DNA from: a virus | Length of the DNA stretch: 12,156 bases | Direction: 5' to 3' (one strand) | UHGV virus genome: UHGV-0071740 | Part shown: positions 568-7,342 of the stretch, piece by piece | How the letters are laid out: every line of letters starts with the position of its first letter | How positions within the stretch are numbered: the stretch's first letter is position 1 | Notes under the pieces: generated by a model | What the model was told of the DNA's origin: nothing | Database searches by the model: none | The model's input: only the letters and a program-made list of their open reading frames with translations | Position numbers and translations under genes: made by a program

Positions 568-812
568 ATGTCGATGTACACAACCGCCCAGCTGCTGGCG
601 GCAAATGAGCAGAAATTTAAGTTTGATCCGCTGTTTCTGTGTCTCTTTTTCCGTGAGAGCTATCCCTTCACCACGGAGAAAGTCTATCTCTCACAAATTC
701 CGGGACTGGTAAACATGGCGCTGTACGTTTCGCCGATTGTTTCCGGTGAGGTTATCCGTTCCCGTGGCGGCTCCACCTCTGAATTTACGCCGGGATATGT
801 CAAGCCGAAGCA
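568..812 (+). pseudogene. E: major capsid protein E, N-terminal fragment (codons 1-82), interrupted by insertion
   Basis: Translation from ATG 568 (MSMYTTAQLLAANEQKFKFDPLFL...GYVKPKH) matches the lambda gpE N-terminus; the frame then reads 9 foreign codons (LAWLSEAFV) to a stop at 841-843. The rest of E resumes at 7333. Confidence 0.95.
803..812. repeat. left copy of 10-bp direct repeat AGCCGAAGCA (attL core / target duplication)
   Basis: Identical 10-mer at 803-812 and 7333-7342, exactly at the two points where E coding sequence breaks and resumes. Confidence 0.8.
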
Positions 813-920
813 CTTAGCATGGCTTTCTGAGGCTTTCGTGTAGTTGCTGGTTTTTACACTTAATCTTTTGATAATAAAGAATAAGTTTATCTGGCGCTTT
901 CACTGGATTTTCCTCGTTAT

Positions 921-962
921 CTGTGTGTTGCAATCATCTCTGTATTGCAGCTTGTATTGCTT
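921..962. repeat. direct repeats of TGT(G)TTGCA-type motif (candidate integrase arm-type sites, left end)
   Basis: TGTGTGTTGCAA 923-934, TGTATTGCAG 941-950, TGTATTGC 953-960, the last two 12 bp apart; the same motif recurs at 7234-7256 near the other end. Confidence 0.55.
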
Positions 963-975
963 TTTGGGGCTAAAA

Positions 976-2211
976 ATGGCTGGCGAGAACAAACTGAGCG
1001 ACAAAGCACTTAAAGGATATCTGGGGAAACCCAGAGAAAAGCAGATCACCATTGCTGATGGAAAGGGGCTTTCTATTCGTGTGAGTACCAAGGGGGCTGT
1101 GAGCTTTGTTTTCTTCTACAGGTTAGCAGGTGGCCGGGCTGCTCCGGTCTGGCTAACGTTGGGTAAATATCCTGATATGTCACTCAAACAGGCAAGGGAA
1201 AAGCGCGACGAGTGCCGTGGTTGGTTGGCTGACAAACGTGATCCGCGTATCCAGATTAAGATTCAGGCTGAAGAACGCTTAAAGCCGGTCACAGTGGAGG
1301 ATGCACTAAATTACTGGTATGAAAATTACTGTAAGGTGCGTCGTAAAACTCATGCTGTAACGCTTGGCAGATTTCGAAAGCATATCTTTCCCTATATCGG
1401 TCATTTGCCCGTAAATGACACTCACCTATATGAATGGCTGGACTGTTTTGACCGAATTAAACGTAATGCACCAGTTATGGCGGCGTATGTTTTTTCTGAC
1501 ACTAAATTAGCTCTTCGTTTTTGTCGGGTACGCCAGTACGCGACGTGTGATGTTTTAAAGGATTTGCGCATGAGTGATGTGGGGCAGATTGCAGGTAAGC
1601 GGGATCGGGTTCTGGATGAAGCCGAACTGGGCCAGCTCTGGAAGGCAATTTTTGTCGAGCCTGATTTAAAACTAATGTCTGAATACACGCGAAAAATGTT
1701 TGTGCTTTGTACAGTATTTGGATGTCGAATGAGTGAAGCCCGATTATCTGAATGGAGCGAATGGGATCTCGAAAGTTGGGTTTGGACTGTACCAAAAGAT
1801 CACTCAAAAACTGGTGTTGAAATCGTCAGACCAGTACCTGAAATTCTACGACAGTGGGTAACGGATGTTCACGAAGAGACAAAACATACTGGTTATGTGC
1901 TGGGAAGTCTGCGAATTAGAGAAAGCGTAAGCAAGATTGGGGGGAAAATCGGTAAACGTTTGGGCCATGAAAAACAATGGTCACTACACGACCTTAGAAG
2001 AACGCTATCTACTCATCTAAGTGATCTCGGTGTTGAATTTTATGTAGTAGAACAACTGTTAGGCCATGCGCTACCTGGCGTGGCAGGTGTTTACAACCGG
2101 AGTAAGTTTATGGCTAAAAAACTGGATGCTCTGGAACTCTGGACTACATATCTCAATAGCATCGCAGGTGCTGATTCAAAAGTGACAATCCTCAAACAAA
2201 AGGCTGGTTAA
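976..2211 (+). CDS. int: tyrosine recombinase / phage integrase, P4-like with N-terminal arm-binding domain
   Basis: ORF track 844..2211; most plausible start is ATG 976 (MAGENKLSDKALKGYLGKP...). C-terminal catalytic signature HDLRRT...LLGHA...GVYNRS (conserved His/Arg and putative catalytic Tyr); sits next to the element boundary. Confidence 0.9.
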   Translation: MAGENKLSDKALKGYLGKPREKQITIADGKGLSIRVSTKGAVSFVFFYRLAGGRAAPVWLTLGKYPDMSLKQAREKRDECRGWLADKRDPRIQIKIQAEERLKPVTVEDALNYWYENYCKVRRKTHAVTLGRFRKHIFPYIGHLPVNDTHLYEWLDCFDRIKRNAPVMAAYVFSDTKLALRFCRVRQYATCDVLKDLRMSDVGQIAGKRDRVLDEAELGQLWKAIFVEPDLKLMSEYTRKMFVLCTVFGCRMSEARLSEWSEWDLESWVWTVPKDHSKTGVEIVRPVPEILRQWVTDVHEETKHTGYVLGSLRIRESVSKIGGKIGKRLGHEKQWSLHDLRRTLSTHLSDLGVEFYVVEQLLGHALPGVAGVYNRSKFMAKKLDALELWTTYLNSIAGADSKVTILKQKAG

Positions 2212-2212
2212 C

Positions 2213-2434
2213 ATGAAAAAAATGGCAATTGTTGATAAAAAGGGTCTGGAGTACATTCCTAACATCGATCGTATGATCCGTGAGAAAGAATGTCGGGAGC
2301 TAACCACTCTTGCAAACAGCACACGCTGGAAGCTGGAGAAGGAAGGAAAATTTCCTAAGCGGATCAAGATTGGTTCCACTGCTGTTGCATATCGTCTTTC
2401 AGAAGTGCAGGCATGGATTAGGGGAGAGTGGTAA
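2213..2434 (+). CDS. alpA: AlpA-family (CP4-57 type) DNA-binding regulator / excisionase-like protein
   Basis: 73-aa ORF starting 2 nt after the int stop; small basic protein with ...KRIKIGSTAVAYRLSEVQAWIRGEW, typical of AlpA/Vis-like winged-helix proteins that accompany satellite integrases. Confidence 0.75.
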   Translation: MKKMAIVDKKGLEYIPNIDRMIREKECRELTTLANSTRWKLEKEGKFPKRIKIGSTAVAYRLSEVQAWIRGEW

Positions 2435-3835
2435 GAATTTAGACAGTGGATGGAATCCTATGGGGGGAACCCATAGGGTTTTAAATAACATAAATTCAAA
2501 AACGTGCGTAGTTGATGAGATTATATAATTAGGTGGTAAGTATTGAACTATTTCTCCATCTTCTTCAAAAATATGAATAACTCTTGGGAATAATTCAGGG
2601 CGTATAGGATTTAATGCCTTCGGATTATGAAACATGTATATTGCTGTACACCATGGTTCTTGATATGAAGGTGCATTGACAAGAGCAGTAAAAGGCATTG
2701 GGGTACAGCCTTCATCAGTTTTAATACCTCTAACGATGGATTTGACATTTTTTTGTTCAATCCCTGCCACTACTCCCATTCTATCAAATTTTGGGATGGT
2801 GGCATGTGTCGCAAGTAATATGGCTGAGACATTCTCATTTTTATTAGAGCCGAAAAAATTAGATGGTATACTTCGATTTTCAAATAAATGTTGTTCAATT
2901 TTACTTCCAGAATCCATATCTACACCATACAGATAGCTTTGTAGTGCTGGCATTGATATACTCATCGAAAGTCTGTGTGAGTAATCGTGTAAAGCAATAA
3001 TGAAAGGCTTTCCTTTTGTATGATCTAGTTCCCAATAGCATAATTTTAAGGGTTCAGGTTTATGCCTAACTTTCTTTAATAGAGTGCGGGCAAATTTGAA
3101 TGGCATTTGTTCTTTTACATATCTCTGAAGATCTTCTACTGCCTCATGATCAAGTATCAATTTCTCGGTAGGTTCCTCTTGTTCTGCAACTGTGGCAGCT
3201 TCTACAGCAATATCAATGCCATTTTTTGAGATAATATAATCAGGTTGAGCATAATCTCTGCATATTACGAAATCCATTTCGTAGAAAACTGCGTTTAGAT
3301 AAAGTTCGAATAAGCGAGAGTTAAATGAAGCACTCTGGAAATCTCTGATGAATATTCCATCAGGATCTTTACACCAATAAGCTAACTCTTGCATAACAAT
3401 AAATGCAGGATAGTGTTTGGGTTCCTCAAGTAGCATTCTTAGATAAACGTTTTTTTTATGTTCTGGAACTTTGGCTAGGAATATTGAAAATGCCGACTCT
3501 GATTCGTCACCCTGTATAAAACAACCGTTCTTGTGTAGTGATAATAGCTCTGGTATGGCTTTTTCCATATCAGTAATTAAATCATCTTTAGATTCACGGG
3601 ATACAATTACTTTAATCGCTCTAAATTTTTTATCTAAATCCCTACCTAGAAATATAGCGTTGTAATCATTATCTATTTTACAAAAAACAATTGTTGCTAA
3701 GATTGTGACATCATCCTTTATAAATTTGAACCAACAGATTTCCTCCGAAAAGGTTTTTACGTATGGTGTACGACCATAGAAAAATACATCAAATTGTTCT
3801 TTACTGATTTCTAGCATTTTGTGACTTGTTGTCAT
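2399..3835 (-). CDS. hypothetical 478-aa protein, AT-rich, no family assignable by eye (candidate defence/effector cargo)
   Basis: Long uninterrupted minus-strand ORF; start ATG at 3835 preceded by AAGGA Shine-Dalgarno; lies 23 nt downstream of the RHH gene on the same strand; strongly AT-rich relative to its surroundings. Confidence 0.7.
   Translation of the reverse strand: MTTSHKMLEISKEQFDVFFYGRTPYVKTFSEEICWFKFIKDDVTILATIVFCKIDNDYNAIFLGRDLDKKFRAIKVIVSRESKDDLITDMEKAIPELLSLHKNGCFIQGDESESAFSIFLAKVPEHKKNVYLRMLLEEPKHYPAFIVMQELAYWCKDPDGIFIRDFQSASFNSRLFELYLNAVFYEMDFVICRDYAQPDYIISKNGIDIAVEAATVAEQEEPTEKLILDHEAVEDLQRYVKEQMPFKFARTLLKKVRHKPEPLKLCYWELDHTKGKPFIIALHDYSHRLSMSISMPALQSYLYGVDMDSGSKIEQHLFENRSIPSNFFGSNKNENVSAILLATHATIPKFDRMGVVAGIEQKNVKSIVRGIKTDEGCTPMPFTALVNAPSYQEPWCTAIYMFHNPKALNPIRPELFPRVIHIFEEDGEIVQYLPPNYIISSTTHVFEFMLFKTLWVPPIGFHPLSKFLPLSPNPCLHF
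2456..2482 (+). terminator. rho-independent terminator-like hairpin after alpA
   Basis: TCCTATGGG (2456-2464) / CCCATAGGG (2470-2478), 5-nt loop GGGAA, then TTTT 2479-2482; begins 22 nt after the alpA stop. Confidence 0.55.
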
Positions 3836-3858
3836 AGAAGAATCCTTTATGCAAATTA

Positions 3859-4053
3859 TCAGCCTTTAGGTGTTATTCCTTGTTTTATTAGTTCGGCACG
3901 AGCCAGTTCTTTTAGCCAGTTACCTAAGCTCATCCCTTCTTTGGCAGCGACATTAACCATTTGTTCTTTTAATTCTGGGTTAATACGGACTTGGAATGCT
4001 GGTGCTTTACCTGCACCTTTCGGTTGTTTATCACGTTGAATGATAGTTGACAT
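3859..4053 (-). CDS. Arc/CopG-like ribbon-helix-helix DNA-binding protein (putative regulator or antitoxin)
   Basis: 64-aa ORF; segment PAFQVRINPELKEQMVNVAAKEGMSLGNWLKELARAEL fits the beta-strand then helix pattern of Arc/MetJ-type RHH proteins; first gene of the operon with the 478-aa ORF. Confidence 0.6.
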   Translation of the reverse strand: MSTIIQRDKQPKGAGKAPAFQVRINPELKEQMVNVAAKEGMSLGNWLKELARAELIKQGITPKG

Positions 4054-4095
4054 GTGTGTACCTATTGCTTAGTATGATTCTTGATAGGTACACAC
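4054..4095. promoter_or_regulatory. perfect 12-bp inverted repeat GTGTGTACCTAT-N18-ATAGGTACACAC (operator-like)
   Basis: Arms at 4054-4065 and 4084-4095; lies between the predicted -10 and the RHH start codon (4051-4053). Confidence 0.6.
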
Positions 4096-4113
4096 CTTAT
4101 CATGTTTTATTGC

Positions 4114-4142
4114 TATATAACAACGCCCTGCAGTGCTCGCAA
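4114..4142 (-). promoter_or_regulatory. predicted sigma70 promoter for the RHH/478-aa operon
   Basis: On the minus strand: -35 TTGCGA (4142-4137), 17-bp spacer, -10 TATATA (4119-4114); would start transcription about 50 nt upstream of the RHH ATG. Confidence 0.5.
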
Positions 4143-4156
4143 CACATACAGGGCGT
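4123..4156. promoter_or_regulatory. second inverted repeat ACGCCCTG-N18-CAGGGCGT overlapping the predicted -35
   Basis: Perfect 8-bp arms at 4123-4130 and 4149-4156, with the same 18-nt spacer length as the 12-bp palindrome. Confidence 0.4.
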
Positions 4157-4390
4157 CTAACCACCAACGATAGCAACAGTATCGAGGTAGCTATGAGAAA
4201 TCATACCACACACCCGCAAGGGCGGGATTCGCACAACCTGAATAAATACATCTGGCGTTTTATCGCCCTGAGCACCGCACAACCACGCGTAATACACATC
4301 GAGGCCGCCAGCGAACAGGAAGCCCGCCAGCAATCCCCAACTGGCTACGTGATGATATTCGCCGCCCGTATTCGTCAGGAGGTGTGCCAT
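4157..4390 (-). CDS. possible small hydrophobic protein (77 aa); coding status uncertain
   Basis: ORF track; GC-rich block with frequent G at codon position 1 and common E. coli codons in this frame; hydrophobic stretch WGLLAGFLFAGGLDVYYAWLCGA. But its start codon overlaps the start and Shine-Dalgarno of the divergent + gene, which is awkward. Confidence 0.3.
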   Translation of the reverse strand: MAHLLTNTGGEYHHVASWGLLAGFLFAGGLDVYYAWLCGAQGDKTPDVFIQVVRIPPLRVCGMISHSYLDTVAIVGG

Positions 4391-4613
4391 GAATGATCTT
4401 TATTTTAAAGTGCTGACACATGCTGAAAACGCGCTCGTTTGTGGCAAAAATATGCGAGAAATCTTATCAACCTGGCTTGATGGGACAACAAATGCAGAAC
4501 ACGATGAACGGGATGCTAATTTAGCTGGAGCGTTAATTACGTTACTTGATCCTGTCATCAAAGAGCTGGATGAAGCTATAAAAATACACGACCAGAGCTA
4601 TACCGGAGAATAA
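4389..4613 (+). CDS. hypothetical protein (74 aa), first gene of the primase operon
   Basis: ATG 4389 preceded by AGGAGG 4377-4382; followed 3 nt later by the next ORF. Confidence 0.55.
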   Translation: MNDLYFKVLTHAENALVCGKNMREILSTWLDGTTNAEHDERDANLAGALITLLDPVIKELDEAIKIHDQSYTGE

Positions 4614-4616
4614 AAA

Positions 4617-4904
4617 ATGAAAAATAAATTTTCTGGCTTTATTGCCAGCGGTCAAACTCATTCAAAAATCAGCCTTGGGGATATTTTCAAAGACAGCTAT
4701 GGCTATCGGGTAAAGATTATTTCGGTTGATGATCGTCGTGTCTCTTATTTGCGTGATGGTTATGATTTTGAATGTGTTATGCCGCGTCAGCAGTTCGAAA
4801 GAGATTTCATTCTGGTAAAAAATTGCAAGACAGATAATCAGAGGCGTGCCGCAGGCTATATCCGTAAAATTCGGGCAATGTTAGTTGCCGGAGGTAACAA
4901 ATGA
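4617..4904 (+). CDS. hypothetical protein (95 aa), translationally coupled to primase
   Basis: ATG 4617 preceded by GGAGA; its stop overlaps the primase start (ATGA at 4901-4904). Confidence 0.55.
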   Translation: MKNKFSGFIASGQTHSKISLGDIFKDSYGYRVKIISVDDRRVSYLRDGYDFECVMPRQQFERDFILVKNCKTDNQRRAAGYIRKIRAMLVAGGNK

Positions 4905-6667
4905 AACGTGCTCCGAACTTAAAATACCAACCGCGCGACAAAATGACGGAAGTCATCATTTTTGCTGGCAGTGATGCCTGGAGCCATGCAAAAGAATGGA
5001 ATGAATGGGCAGGTAAGCATATTGCAGCAGATGATACACCACCAGTCATTCTGGGTACGGAACAACTGGAAAACCTGGATGATATGCAAATTATCGATGA
5101 AGGCCGTCATTATGTGCGTGTTTATCGTGCCGGAAAGATTGCAGAGAAAAGTCTGACGAAGGTTGCGACATTACTTGCTATTGCAGGCGTAAAGGAAGCA
5201 CGTTGTTACCGTAGCTTTGTTGATCGAGAGCCTGAAGACTGGACTCCGCGCCTTGTCGGCCTAAAAGCTGAAGCGGAGCATGGGGAAAGTCTGGTGATTG
5301 AACTGCCAGTGAAGAAGGCTGAGCGCAAAAATGACGAGCGTGCTTCATCTTTGGCGTTGAATCAGATGGGGGCCAGCCAGCGCGGTGAAGTTCTCCTTGC
5401 ACATTACGGCGGCGAACTGGCAATCAATGCCGACTCTGACACCGTTCATCATTACAACGGCGTTGTATGGGAGCCGGTTCAGGATAAAGAGTTACAGCGT
5501 GCTATGGCGCAGATTTTCATTGATGCGGAGATCAGCTATTCGCAGAACGCTATTAAATCGGCGGTAGATACCATGAAGTTAAGTTTGCCTGTAATGGGGA
5601 ATACAGCCCGTAACCTGATTGGATTCAGTAACGGGGTATTTGATACCAGAACTGGTAATTTTCGGGAGCATAACAAAAACGACTGGTTGTTAATTGCCAG
5701 TGAATTACCTTTCAGCCCACCAGCAGAGGGGGAAACGCTGGCAACACATGCGCCGAATTTCTGGAAGTGGTTGCGCCGTTCGGTGGCTGAGAATGACCGC
5801 AAGGCAGATCGCGTACTGGCGGCATTATTCATGGTGCTGGCGAACCGGTACGACTGGCAGTTATTCATTGAGGTAACAGGGCCGGGGGGAAGTGGTAAAA
5901 GTGTGATGGCGGAGATTTGCACCATGCTGGCGGGTAAGGCTAATACAGTATCAGCAAGCATGAAGGCGCTGGAAGATGCAAGGGAACGTGCGTTAGTGGT
6001 TGGCTTTTCGCTGATTATCATGCCGGATATGACCCGCTACGCTGGTGATGGGGCAGGGATTAAGGCCATTACAGGCGGTGACAAGGTGGCAATTGACCCG
6101 AAACACAAAGCCCCCTATTCAACGCGTATTCCGGCAGTAGTGCTGGCGGTTAACAATAACGCCATGTCATTCAGTGACCGCAGCGGGGGGATCTCACGTC
6201 GTCGGGTGATATTCAATTTTTCGGAAGTTGTACCGGAGAACGAACGCGATTCGATGCTGGCGGAAAAAATAGAAGGTGAGCTGGCGGTAGTGATTCGTCA
6301 TCTGCTTACAAGGTTTGCTGATCAGGACGAAGCCAGACGCCTGTTATATGAGCAGCAGAAATCTGAAGAAGCACTGGCGATAAAGCGAGAGGGGGATTCG
6401 CTGGTGGACTTCTGCGGTTATCTCATGGCATCGGTAATGTGTGATGGCCTGTTAGTGGGTAATGCTGAAATTGTGCCATTCAGCCCACGCAGGTATCTCT
6501 ATCATGCCTATCTTGATGAGCTGTTCGTTCCATGTGCATCACCGAGTTTATTACGAAGAGTACCTAACCCATTTACAACTGCAGAACAACCGCCGAGAAT
6601 TTGTTTGAAGATATTTTCAGTATGTTGGTCGGCAGATAGGTTAAGTTCTTTTGAAAGAGTTTTATAA
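4901..6667 (+). CDS. P4-family primase/helicase-like replication protein (D5_N-like region, SF3-type P-loop), C-terminus apparently truncated or chimeric
   Basis: 588-aa ORF; Walker A GPGGSGKS encoded near 5880-5900; hydrophobic-D Walker B-like LIIMPD; overall pattern of phage/plasmid primase P4-family C-terminal domain; the last ~50 codons are antisense to the HEPN gene and look like read-through. Confidence 0.8.
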   Translation: MKRAPNLKYQPRDKMTEVIIFAGSDAWSHAKEWNEWAGKHIAADDTPPVILGTEQLENLDDMQIIDEGRHYVRVYRAGKIAEKSLTKVATLLAIAGVKEARCYRSFVDREPEDWTPRLVGLKAEAEHGESLVIELPVKKAERKNDERASSLALNQMGASQRGEVLLAHYGGELAINADSDTVHHYNGVVWEPVQDKELQRAMAQIFIDAEISYSQNAIKSAVDTMKLSLPVMGNTARNLIGFSNGVFDTRTGNFREHNKNDWLLIASELPFSPPAEGETLATHAPNFWKWLRRSVAENDRKADRVLAALFMVLANRYDWQLFIEVTGPGGSGKSVMAEICTMLAGKANTVSASMKALEDARERALVVGFSLIIMPDMTRYAGDGAGIKAITGGDKVAIDPKHKAPYSTRIPAVVLAVNNNAMSFSDRSGGISRRRVIFNFSEVVPENERDSMLAEKIEGELAVVIRHLLTRFADQDEARRLLYEQQKSEEALAIKREGDSLVDFCGYLMASVMCDGLLVGNAEIVPFSPRRYLYHAYLDELFVPCASPSLLRRVPNPFTTAEQPPRICLKIFSVCWSADRLSSFERVL

Positions 6668-7173
6668 AGCTCTGACATTTCAATATTTTTATTATTATAC
6701 TGAATGCCCATATCATCAAGAATGTGTTTGCAAACTGTTTCAAGAAGTGTTCTTGCGGAGGTTATCGCACCATCCGGATCTGTATGGCGCCGTTCAAGTG
6801 CTTTTATCCAAACGGCGTGGACTCCATCCTCGTTAAACTTTCTTAATACATCAGATATGTCTTCATCCGCTGGAGCTTTATTTTTCCCTTCTAGATAGTC
6901 CAGCATCGGCTGAAATGCCTTATAAATCAAATCTCTCCGGGGGGCATACTTTTCAGTCTTTTTTATAAATCCCCAAAATTCTTTTAGTGAGCGATTAGTT
7001 CTCACAAACTCTGGTAATAGCTGATGTAAAGGAGGATTTTGTAAGAAATATGTTCTTAGAAGCAAATAATCATTATTAGCTTCATCCTGGGCTCCTGTAG
7101 CTCTTGCAATTAGTATGTTTTGAAGCGCTACTGCGCGCTCTAGGTCATTTTGAAGGGTATCTATAATATTCAT
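6508..7173 (-). CDS. HEPN-type abortive-infection-like protein (Abi_C-like), 221 aa
   Basis: Minus-strand ORF, AT-rich; C-terminal GLGTLRNKLGDAHG contains an R-x6-H motif of the HEPN/Abi_C type; only 7 residues follow the motif His, so the protein may be C-terminally shortened. Confidence 0.55.
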   Translation of the reverse strand: MNIIDTLQNDLERAVALQNILIARATGAQDEANNDYLLLRTYFLQNPPLHQLLPEFVRTNRSLKEFWGFIKKTEKYAPRRDLIYKAFQPMLDYLEGKNKAPADEDISDVLRKFNEDGVHAVWIKALERRHTDPDGAITSARTLLETVCKHILDDMGIQYNNKNIEMSELYKTLSKELNLSADQHTENIFKQILGGCSAVVNGLGTLRNKLGDAHGTNSSSR

Positions 7174-7233
7174 AACAAATCTTTATTCACTTCATTTGTG
7201 GGTTGATAATTGAATGGTTTGTACATTGATTTC

Positions 7234-7256
7234 TGTGTATTGCAGTGTGTATTGCA
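7234..7256. repeat. tandem direct repeat TGTGTATTGCA x2 (candidate integrase arm-type sites, right end)
   Basis: Copies at 7234-7244 and 7246-7256 (12-bp register), about 80-100 bp inside the right junction; same motif and orientation as the left-end copies. Confidence 0.55.
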
Positions 7257-7332
7257 ACATAGCCATTCAGGTAGAGATTATGCTCTATTTTTCCTCTTAT
7301 ATCATTCACATACTTACACCATTGACTCATGT

Positions 7333-7342
7333 AGCCGAAGCA
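7333..7342. repeat. right copy of 10-bp direct repeat AGCCGAAGCA (attR core)
   Basis: Identical to 803-812; lambda-like E sequence resumes from here. Confidence 0.8.

Follow-up and report, generated by a model that had tools for sequence, protein, structure and literature searches.

The viral genome UHGV-0071740 carries, in a short AT-rich segment, a gene for a small DNA-binding protein followed by a much larger gene, and the question raised by this locus is whether the two form a new anti-phage or toxin-antitoxin module. We analyzed a stretch of 12,156 nucleotides (nt) of this genome, called the window below. The first-pass annotation, made from the sequence alone, had described a 64-amino-acid (aa) ribbon-helix-helix (RHH) protein and a 478-aa protein of unknown family, and had read them as an operon in which a small regulator is paired with a large effector. 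Very probably the answer is a different one: the large gene is a known defense gene, PD-T7-1, which lies in the cargo slot of a phage satellite and is co-transcribed with the satellite's own Arc-like repressor, and the pair is not a toxin-antitoxin system.

The physical description of the locus stands: the two open reading frames (ORFs), the 23-nt gap between them (3836-3858), a Shine-Dalgarno sequence, a palindrome and the low GC content are all present in the sequence. With a GC content of 0.356 (PD-T7-1 gene 0.344, RHH gene 0.41), positions 2399-4053 are the lowest in the window, in line with the earlier description of them as its most compositionally foreign part. An Abi-like gene at 6508-7173 comes next (0.384). 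The GC content of the island backbone genes is 0.45-0.48, and that of the lambda-like head and tail genes on either side 0.56-0.57.

The large protein matched the PADLOC profile of PD-T7-1 (PDLC04073) from residue 7 to 447, against profile positions 1-448 of 452 (E 9.1e-154, 510 bits), and that of PD-T7-5 (PDLC04110) over residues 118-431 (E 9e-39). Its closest database cluster, at 99% identity, has 71 members of 449 aa from E. coli and Escherichia. Of the searches that had been suggested for it, PADLOC gave this clear answer and Pfam gave none; neither Pfam nor NCBIfam matched any domain, in agreement with the earlier remark that the protein has no obvious P-loop. We identify it as PD-T7-1, in a near-identical copy of a validated E. 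coli anti-phage gene. The label "unknown family" does not survive this result, and a high-confidence match to a known defense family is the outcome that the first-pass annotation had itself named as counting against its proposal; its suspicion that a satellite carries a defense gene here was correct, the PD-T7-1 match lying within a PICI-type island (phage-inducible chromosomal island). Since the large protein is PD-T7-1, its identity is already known and the locus is largely explained.

PD-T7-1 was recovered by functional selection in E. coli from strain ECOR46 (Vassallo et al., 2022; PMC9519451). It is listed in Table S2 as one coding sequence, bears the label "nuclease", and gave protection against T7 and stronger protection against T-even phages. 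Its ECOR46 coordinates span ~1,350 nt, that is, 449 codons and a stop, and this ORF length together with the cluster membership points to identity with the ECOR46 protein RCQ85672.1. HHpred matches reported for it were weak (Hjc, PDDEXK_5, BsuBI/PstI, Vsr, RmuC) and confined to residues 161-220 (PMC9519451). In a later study, the PD-T7-1 of NILS69, one of several systems of that strain, protected against a Teseptimavirus and, in K-12, shrank T7 plaques; in reviews the gene figures as a PD-(D/E)xK system of one gene and of unknown mechanism. A system without an obligatory partner is also what Table S2 shows with its one coding sequence, and homologs in three surveyed loci (L003-L005) stand without an RHH gene. 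A scan of genome contigs with a profile of the family alignment gave three loci, and gene contexts were drawn from the encoding contigs and from the E. coli genome collection. Homologs of ~60% identity were found in temperate Yersinia, Morganella, and Escherichia phages. In Pseudomonas fluorescens HK44 (L004, 3736-6407), a homolog of 53% identity overlaps, by 4 nt at its start, the end of the gene for a reverse transcriptase of 421 aa (Pfam RVT_1, E 2e-18; PADLOC RT, E 3e-44, and RT_UG17, E 4e-35), and this pair may be a two-gene defense arrangement of reverse transcriptase and nuclease.

PD-T7-1 consists of three parts: an N-terminal alpha+beta domain (~1-110), a central nuclease-like core, and a C-terminal beta-rich domain. 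The AlphaFold model of the large protein, built with 76 homologs, is confident (predicted local distance difference test score, pLDDT, 91.8; predicted template modeling score 0.90). Foldseek found nothing for it in PDB and BFVD at E <= 0.001, and a sequence profile search of solved structures also returned no match; the proposed modeling check yielded a confident model with no significant relative in either collection. The tentative PD-(D/E)xK stretch that had been picked out by eye was in the right place: the first core helix carries E177, the second strand is preceded by P198-D199, and the third strand contains E212, all of them invariant across the 76 sequences. At position 214, where the lysine of (D/E)xK is expected, the family has A or V. 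The central core appears to be restriction-endonuclease-like, with K255, an invariant residue of the following helix, as a candidate relocated lysine. PHROG 8571 covers residues 111-444 (E 9e-91). We also considered the N-terminal domain as a shuffled sensor domain and found no support for this, as a search of 1.84 billion representatives gave 77 matches, nearly all of the same architecture or fragments of it.

The gene pair lies on an island (803-7342) that we classify as a helper-embedded PICI (HE-PICI) of the site group E:Phage_cap_E_80. Its int, alpA, and primase genes follow in the order that marks Gram-negative PICIs, and its att repeats lie inside a lambda-type late gene; when the flanks are joined at the att cores, an intact E ORF of 341 aa results. 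Of 5426 complete E. coli genomes, 173 have the attL junction and 3103 the uninterrupted site.

What belongs to this island and what is exchangeable cargo could be read from its relatives. About half of the sampled matches from 404 matching E. coli genomes align with the query only up to base 232-240, where alpA ends. In complete E. coli genomes, the frame of int-alpA and RHH-icd-like-DUF4222-primase is constant, and what varies is the cargo that it encloses between alpA and RHH: a hypothetical protein of 241 aa, a putAbiC protein, a DUF2971 protein with a SWIM protein, or a hypothetical protein of 305 aa encoded on the opposite strand. At three loci (L020, L024, L025) there is no annotated gene behind the RHH gene, and at L019 there is only a 41-aa ORF. 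Related PICI-type islands elsewhere on the chromosome, with other integrases and with RepA for primase, keep the divergent RHH/icd-like pair. Conversely, PD-T7-1 homologs of 53-60% identity, in one Enterobacteriaceae and two Pseudomonas genomes, have no RHH gene upstream. Because the RHH gene is kept with unrelated cargos or with none, and because distant PD-T7-1 homologs lack it, we assign it to the satellite backbone and not to the PD-T7-1 system. We recognize the alpA-RHH slot as a hotspot for defense cargo in these satellites, a mildly new element. PADLOC gave no match or a faint one for the slot occupants of L012 (4788-5513, 241 aa), L015 (4759-5676, 305 aa), and L014 (4729-6071, DUF2971 and SWIM), and these uncharacterized genes are plausible defense candidates.

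The RHH protein itself appears to be Arc-like, as first proposed, with modest family support. It matched PHROG 228, "Arc-like repressor" (E 1.2e-5), and in a phmmer search its residues 12-59 aligned weakly (E 0.063) with residues 2-49 of P22 Arc (1b28), nearly the whole fold. Beyond this part there is only an N-terminal tail of 11-16 residues. The two Pfam matches, HicB (20.3 bits over 29 residues, gathering cut-off 21) and Arc (E 0.045), are both below the cut-offs. A HicB antitoxin, the name given in the NCBI annotation, was rejected on this sub-cut-off score and on the lack of a partner, as no HicA-like ORF was found among the ORFs of the window.

A palindromic operator had been proposed in the DNA in front of the RHH gene. 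A perfect 12-bp inverted repeat indeed abuts the RHH start codon (Table 1), and it is the sole inverted repeat in 3840-4420, a rough estimate of the number expected by chance being ~0.003. One of its arms lies between the -35 and -10 hexamers of a rightward promoter-like site and the other just downstream. The "strong predicted promoter" of the first-pass annotation did not hold for the pair: this good site faces the icd-like/primase operon, and a sigma-70 consensus scan upstream of the RHH gene gave no match on its coding (minus) strand. The leftward candidate was instead recognized by its pattern (TTGnnn, 18 nt, TGnTAAKGT), which is conserved across island variants and whose -10/start region overlaps the distal arm.

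We compared this operator in 15 islands. The proximal arm ends at the RHH ATG or at most 3 nt from it in 13 of the 15, and the spacer measures 16-21 nt. Changes in the half-site are mirrored in both arms and covary with residues of the RHH beta-strand. The strand APAFQ[VI]RI goes with the half-site GTGT-GT-ACCTAT (type A, GT) in the window and four other islands, the arms being imperfect in L024; APPFHMRI goes with GTGT-AC-ACCTAT (type B, AC) in eight islands, including that of Edwardsiella; and APMFNVRI goes with GTAT-AG-ACCTA (AG) in one. Other repeats are found with a Serratia relative and with a more distant 59-aa RHH protein. The variable RHH positions align with Q9 and N11 of Arc, which we take to be base-contacting residues. 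Because the half-sites covary with these beta-strand residues, the RHH protein most likely binds the palindrome, as a dimer of dimers; we consider this operator code a second mildly new element. The RHH type is independent of the cargo, since PD-T7-1 is paired with type A in the window and in Buttiauxella (L006) and with type B in Edwardsiella (L007).

Beyond the operator, the leader of the rightward operon contains a hairpin that is common to the E. coli, Buttiauxella, Edwardsiella, and Serratia islands. It matched no Rfam family, C4 and isrK included, at E <= 1. At the same threshold, Rfam searched over the whole window gave no C4-, isrK-, or CI-like immunity RNA and only a chance P10 match, so RNA immunity of the P4 kind, as reported for some PICIs, is undetectable in the window.

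Table 1. Positions of the features discussed, numbered along the window.
Feature	Position	Strand	Basis or remark
attL core AGCCGAAGCA in lambda-type capsid gene E, codons ~78-82	803-812		10-bp direct repeat
Tyrosine integrase, called as 411 aa on the source contig	976-2211	+	Pfam Arm-DNA-bind_3, Phage_integrase
alpA, excisionase/regulator; the variable cargo slot is bounded on the left by its stop codon	2213-2434	+	Pfam Phage_AlpA, E 2.7e-15
Read-through tail of PD-T7-1, 29 codons and stop	2399-2488	-	K449M and stop-loss; alignment with MLI104K2
PD-T7-1 homolog, ORF as read 478 aa	2399-3835	-	Canonical 449-aa protein is 2489-3835
Hairpin CCTATGGG/CCCATAGG, terminator-like, between convergent alpA and PD-T7-1	2457-2477		Read from sequence; function inferred
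Shine-Dalgarno AAGGA of PD-T7-1 gene	3843-3847	-	Sequence; 7 nt before ATG, within the spacer 3836-3858
Arc-like RHH protein, 64 aa; satellite backbone regulator	3859-4053	-	PHROG 228, Arc alignment, island survey
Rightward promoter-like site: TTGACA (4047-4052), 17 nt, TAGTAT (4070-4075)	4047-4075	+	Consensus scan, 10/12 matches
Putative operator, perfect 12-bp inverted repeat GTGTGTACCTAT/ATAGGTACACAC	Arms 4054-4065, 4084-4095		18-nt spacer; proximal arm abuts RHH ATG
Leftward promoter candidate: TTGTTA (4123-4118), 18 nt, extended -10 TGaTAAGGT (4102-4094)	4094-4123	-	Island conservation
Hairpin ACGCCCTG ... CAGGGCGT, leader of the rightward icd-like operon	4123-4156		Compensatory changes in 4/12 pairs, 6-7 islands
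attR core AGCCGAAGCA	7333-7342		10-bp direct repeat, restored E ORF

These observations are best explained by a small PICI-type satellite of which 2399-4053 is the only leftward operon, with the RHH gene as its first gene. As the operator is interleaved with the -35 and -10 of the rightward site and with the -10/start of the leftward one, the RHH protein would repress both the replication genes and itself: bound to the operator, it would hold off the icd-like/DUF4222/primase operon, and it would autoregulate through the overlap with its own leftward promoter. PD-T7-1, in the slot between the alpA stop and the RHH gene, would be translated from its own Shine-Dalgarno sequence on the RHH transcript, and its synthesis would be low and autoregulated as long as the satellite and the prophage stay quiescent. 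After infection it would presumably be a nuclease that attacks nucleic acid of the phage or the cell.

Several points weigh against this picture. Judged by consensus the leftward promoter is weak, and the scan missed it; the sequence does not decide whether the RHH protein is a repressor or an activator. In the nuclease core, the third strand (E212-A-A) does not have the canonical (D/E)xK lysine, and catalysis is not assured. The published protection covers the ECOR46 and NILS69 alleles only; the window copy has a stop-loss tail and comes from a contig of only 4x coverage, and its satellite, reduced to 6.5 kb and with an altered primase 3' end, may be decaying.

The last of these points lead to the alternative that survives best, namely that the allele in the window is dead or artefactual, the product of a low-coverage or chimeric assembly or of satellite decay, and gives no defense. 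The ORF does read 478 codons, as annotated; the listed close relatives are mostly of 449 aa, however, eight of the nine aligned ones stopping at ...FEFK or within two residues of it, and the extra length is a stop-loss tail. In a DNA alignment with E. coli MLI104K2, AAG TGA has become ATG TTA at 2491-2486 (K449M), and the frame reads on across the hairpin at 2457-2477 and enters alpA, a convergent gene, at its 3' end. The exact 478-aa protein is recorded only on the contig ENA ERZ1742012 NODE_1002, at a coverage of 4.16. Around the PD-T7-1 stop and the hairpin, eight substitutions fall within ~50 nt (2440-2500), as against ~0.8% divergence from MLI104K2 over the 2-kb segment 2200-4200, and this cluster may reflect an assembly chimera or a small recombination patch. 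The satellite is also without genes for a single-stranded DNA-binding protein (SSB), a capsid protein, and a decoration protein, its primase end is altered, and this PD-T7-1 gene is annotated as broken in the only two complete RefSeq E. coli genomes in which it occurs. On the other side, the window copy keeps every invariant residue of the family, its tail lies outside the folded body and is predicted to be disordered (pLDDT <50 for residues 454-478), natural relatives have C-terminal extensions of 20-90 aa, and the hairpin, an 11-bp stem at the same place in a related E. coli copy, survives the substitutions. We consider a dead or artefactual allele unlikely.

As to the two broken RefSeq copies, PD-T7-1 is split into 316 and 131 aa in MLI104K2 (L001, 6287-7635) and is 360 aa long in SCU-316 (L018, 5787-6869). 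Neighboring genes are also marked as frameshifted at both loci, and the breaks may be assembly indels and not decay.

A second alternative takes the RHH protein as a dedicated, defense-associated transcription factor whose chief task would be to gate PD-T7-1 on infection, and not satellite control. The two genes would share a transcript, and the operator overlaps the promoter that would drive PD-T7-1. The published clone consisted of the ORF with flanks of 45 and 302 nt (PMC9519451). In every E. coli copy examined the RHH gene reaches 218 nt upstream of the ORF, so that, if the ECOR46 layout is the same, these coordinates suggest that the published clone probably carried the whole RHH gene. 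Such a role is nevertheless quite improbable, given that the RHH/operator unit is found without cargo and always divergent to the icd-like/replication operon, that this pairing recurs in PICIs at several chromosomal sites whose integrases and replication proteins differ, and that the operator overlaps best with the promoter of the rightward operon.

The third alternative, a type II toxin-antitoxin system in which the RHH protein would neutralize a PD-(D/E)xK nuclease toxin and autoregulate the operon, is very improbable and was rejected, together with the earlier regulator-plus-effector proposal, on co-occurrence and protein length: each partner occurs without the other, the RHH gene staying with at least four unrelated downstream cargos and with no gene in three loci while distant PD-T7-1 homologs lack it; types A and B both accompany PD-T7-1 with no co-variation; the 64-aa protein, aligned to Arc over 12-59, is essentially a DNA-binding fold without the C-terminal toxin-binding extension of RHH antitoxins; and the HicB score is below cut-off with no HicA partner.

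The reading of a known defense gene in a satellite cargo slot, behind the satellite's own repressor, can be extended. The RHH protein with its covarying operator may be the master (immunity) repressor of capE-type HE-PICIs and of related Gram-negative PICIs, holding the icd-like/primase genes off and driving the cargo; the operator types GT, AC, and AG would then be immunity groups, and the published "single-gene" phenotype would come from a clone that included the repressor. We put this forward tentatively, and lean slightly against it.

The satellite deserves some further description. Tommasini, Mageeney & Williams (2023; PMC10111431) describe a capE HE-PICI with a 10-bp identity block, "11capE", and show induction, excision, and helper-dependent transfer experimentally for this element only. 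We accordingly discarded the idea that a satellite in a capsid gene is new. In the sections of that article covered by our search, no discussion of the antisense RHH and cargo operon or of its defense content was found. Full-size relatives of the island (~10 kb) have an SSB gene, their own E-family capsid gene (42% identical to that of the helper), and a decoration gene; the window satellite lacks these as well as an HTH (helix-turn-helix) gene, and its homology to full-size islands (e.g., L016, 23882-28855) ends at ~6513, in an altered primase 3' end. In the place of the SSB and capsid genes stands an AT-rich Abi_C/AbiJ-like gene on the minus strand (6508-7173; PADLOC AbiJ, E 8e-17; PHROG 23253, E 2e-157), possibly a second defense cargo. 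Just within both island ends there are repeated TGTATTGC motifs (window 7230-7270; L016 18600-18650 and 28760-28790). These are likely arm-type sites bound by the integrase, a protein with an Arm-DNA-bind_3 domain.

For discovery, the window copy carries little weight, being one more, slightly aberrant copy of a validated defense gene. More is to be learned from its surroundings. The alpA-RHH slot of helper-embedded and other Gram-negative PICIs holds PD-T7-1, putAbiC, DUF2971/SWIM, and unknown genes, the last of which are candidates for defense functions. The 64-aa protein labeled "HicB family antitoxin" or "YlcI/YnfO family protein" by NCBI in hundreds of E. coli islands behaves like a backbone regulator of the Arc kind whose operator code can be read, and not like an antitoxin. 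Work on the PD-T7-1 mechanism should also take into account that the native-promoter clone may have included the RHH gene.

Compared with the PD-T7-1 of Vassallo et al., the window copy shares the full-length profile match, the 99% identity to the 449-aa cluster, the predicted PD-(D/E)xK-like stretch at ~171-219, and the carriage by a mobile element. It differs by its 29-aa read-through tail and, against the cluster representative, at H293, P332, T386, P425, and M449 (positions counted by eye in the alignment). PD-T7-5 (PDLC04110; Vassallo et al.) and PHROG 8571 have the nuclease core and the C-terminal domain in common with PD-T7-1 and lack its N-terminal domain of ~110 residues. With the 11capE group of HE-PICIs the island shares the integration into gene E at the 10-bp block and the order of int-alpA, dynamic zone, and replication zone. 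Full-size members of the group carry their own E-family capsid gene, whereas the window copy is a 6.5-kb reduced form without SSB and Late zone and with the Abi_C/AbiJ-like gene instead.

The regulator can be compared with the Arc/Mnt-type repressors of P22: the alignment takes in the entire Arc fold, the putative operator is an inverted repeat that overlaps promoters, and the gene lies beside a pair of divergent promoters. It differs by the weak similarity (E 0.063 against PDB) and by the operator, whose 12-bp arms are 30 bp apart from center to center, unlike the 21-bp operator of Arc. The resemblance to lambda cI-rexAB is one of layout only, a defense cargo being expressed with the maintenance regulator of the element. 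Defense hotspots in PICIs were reportedly treated by Fillol-Salom and colleagues in 2022. The defense hotspots of P2, P4, and PICIs (Rousset et al., 2022; PMC9122126) likewise hold variable defense cargo between backbone genes; from these, as from cI-rexAB, the present locus differs in the family of the element and in the slot, which here runs from alpA to the RHH gene.

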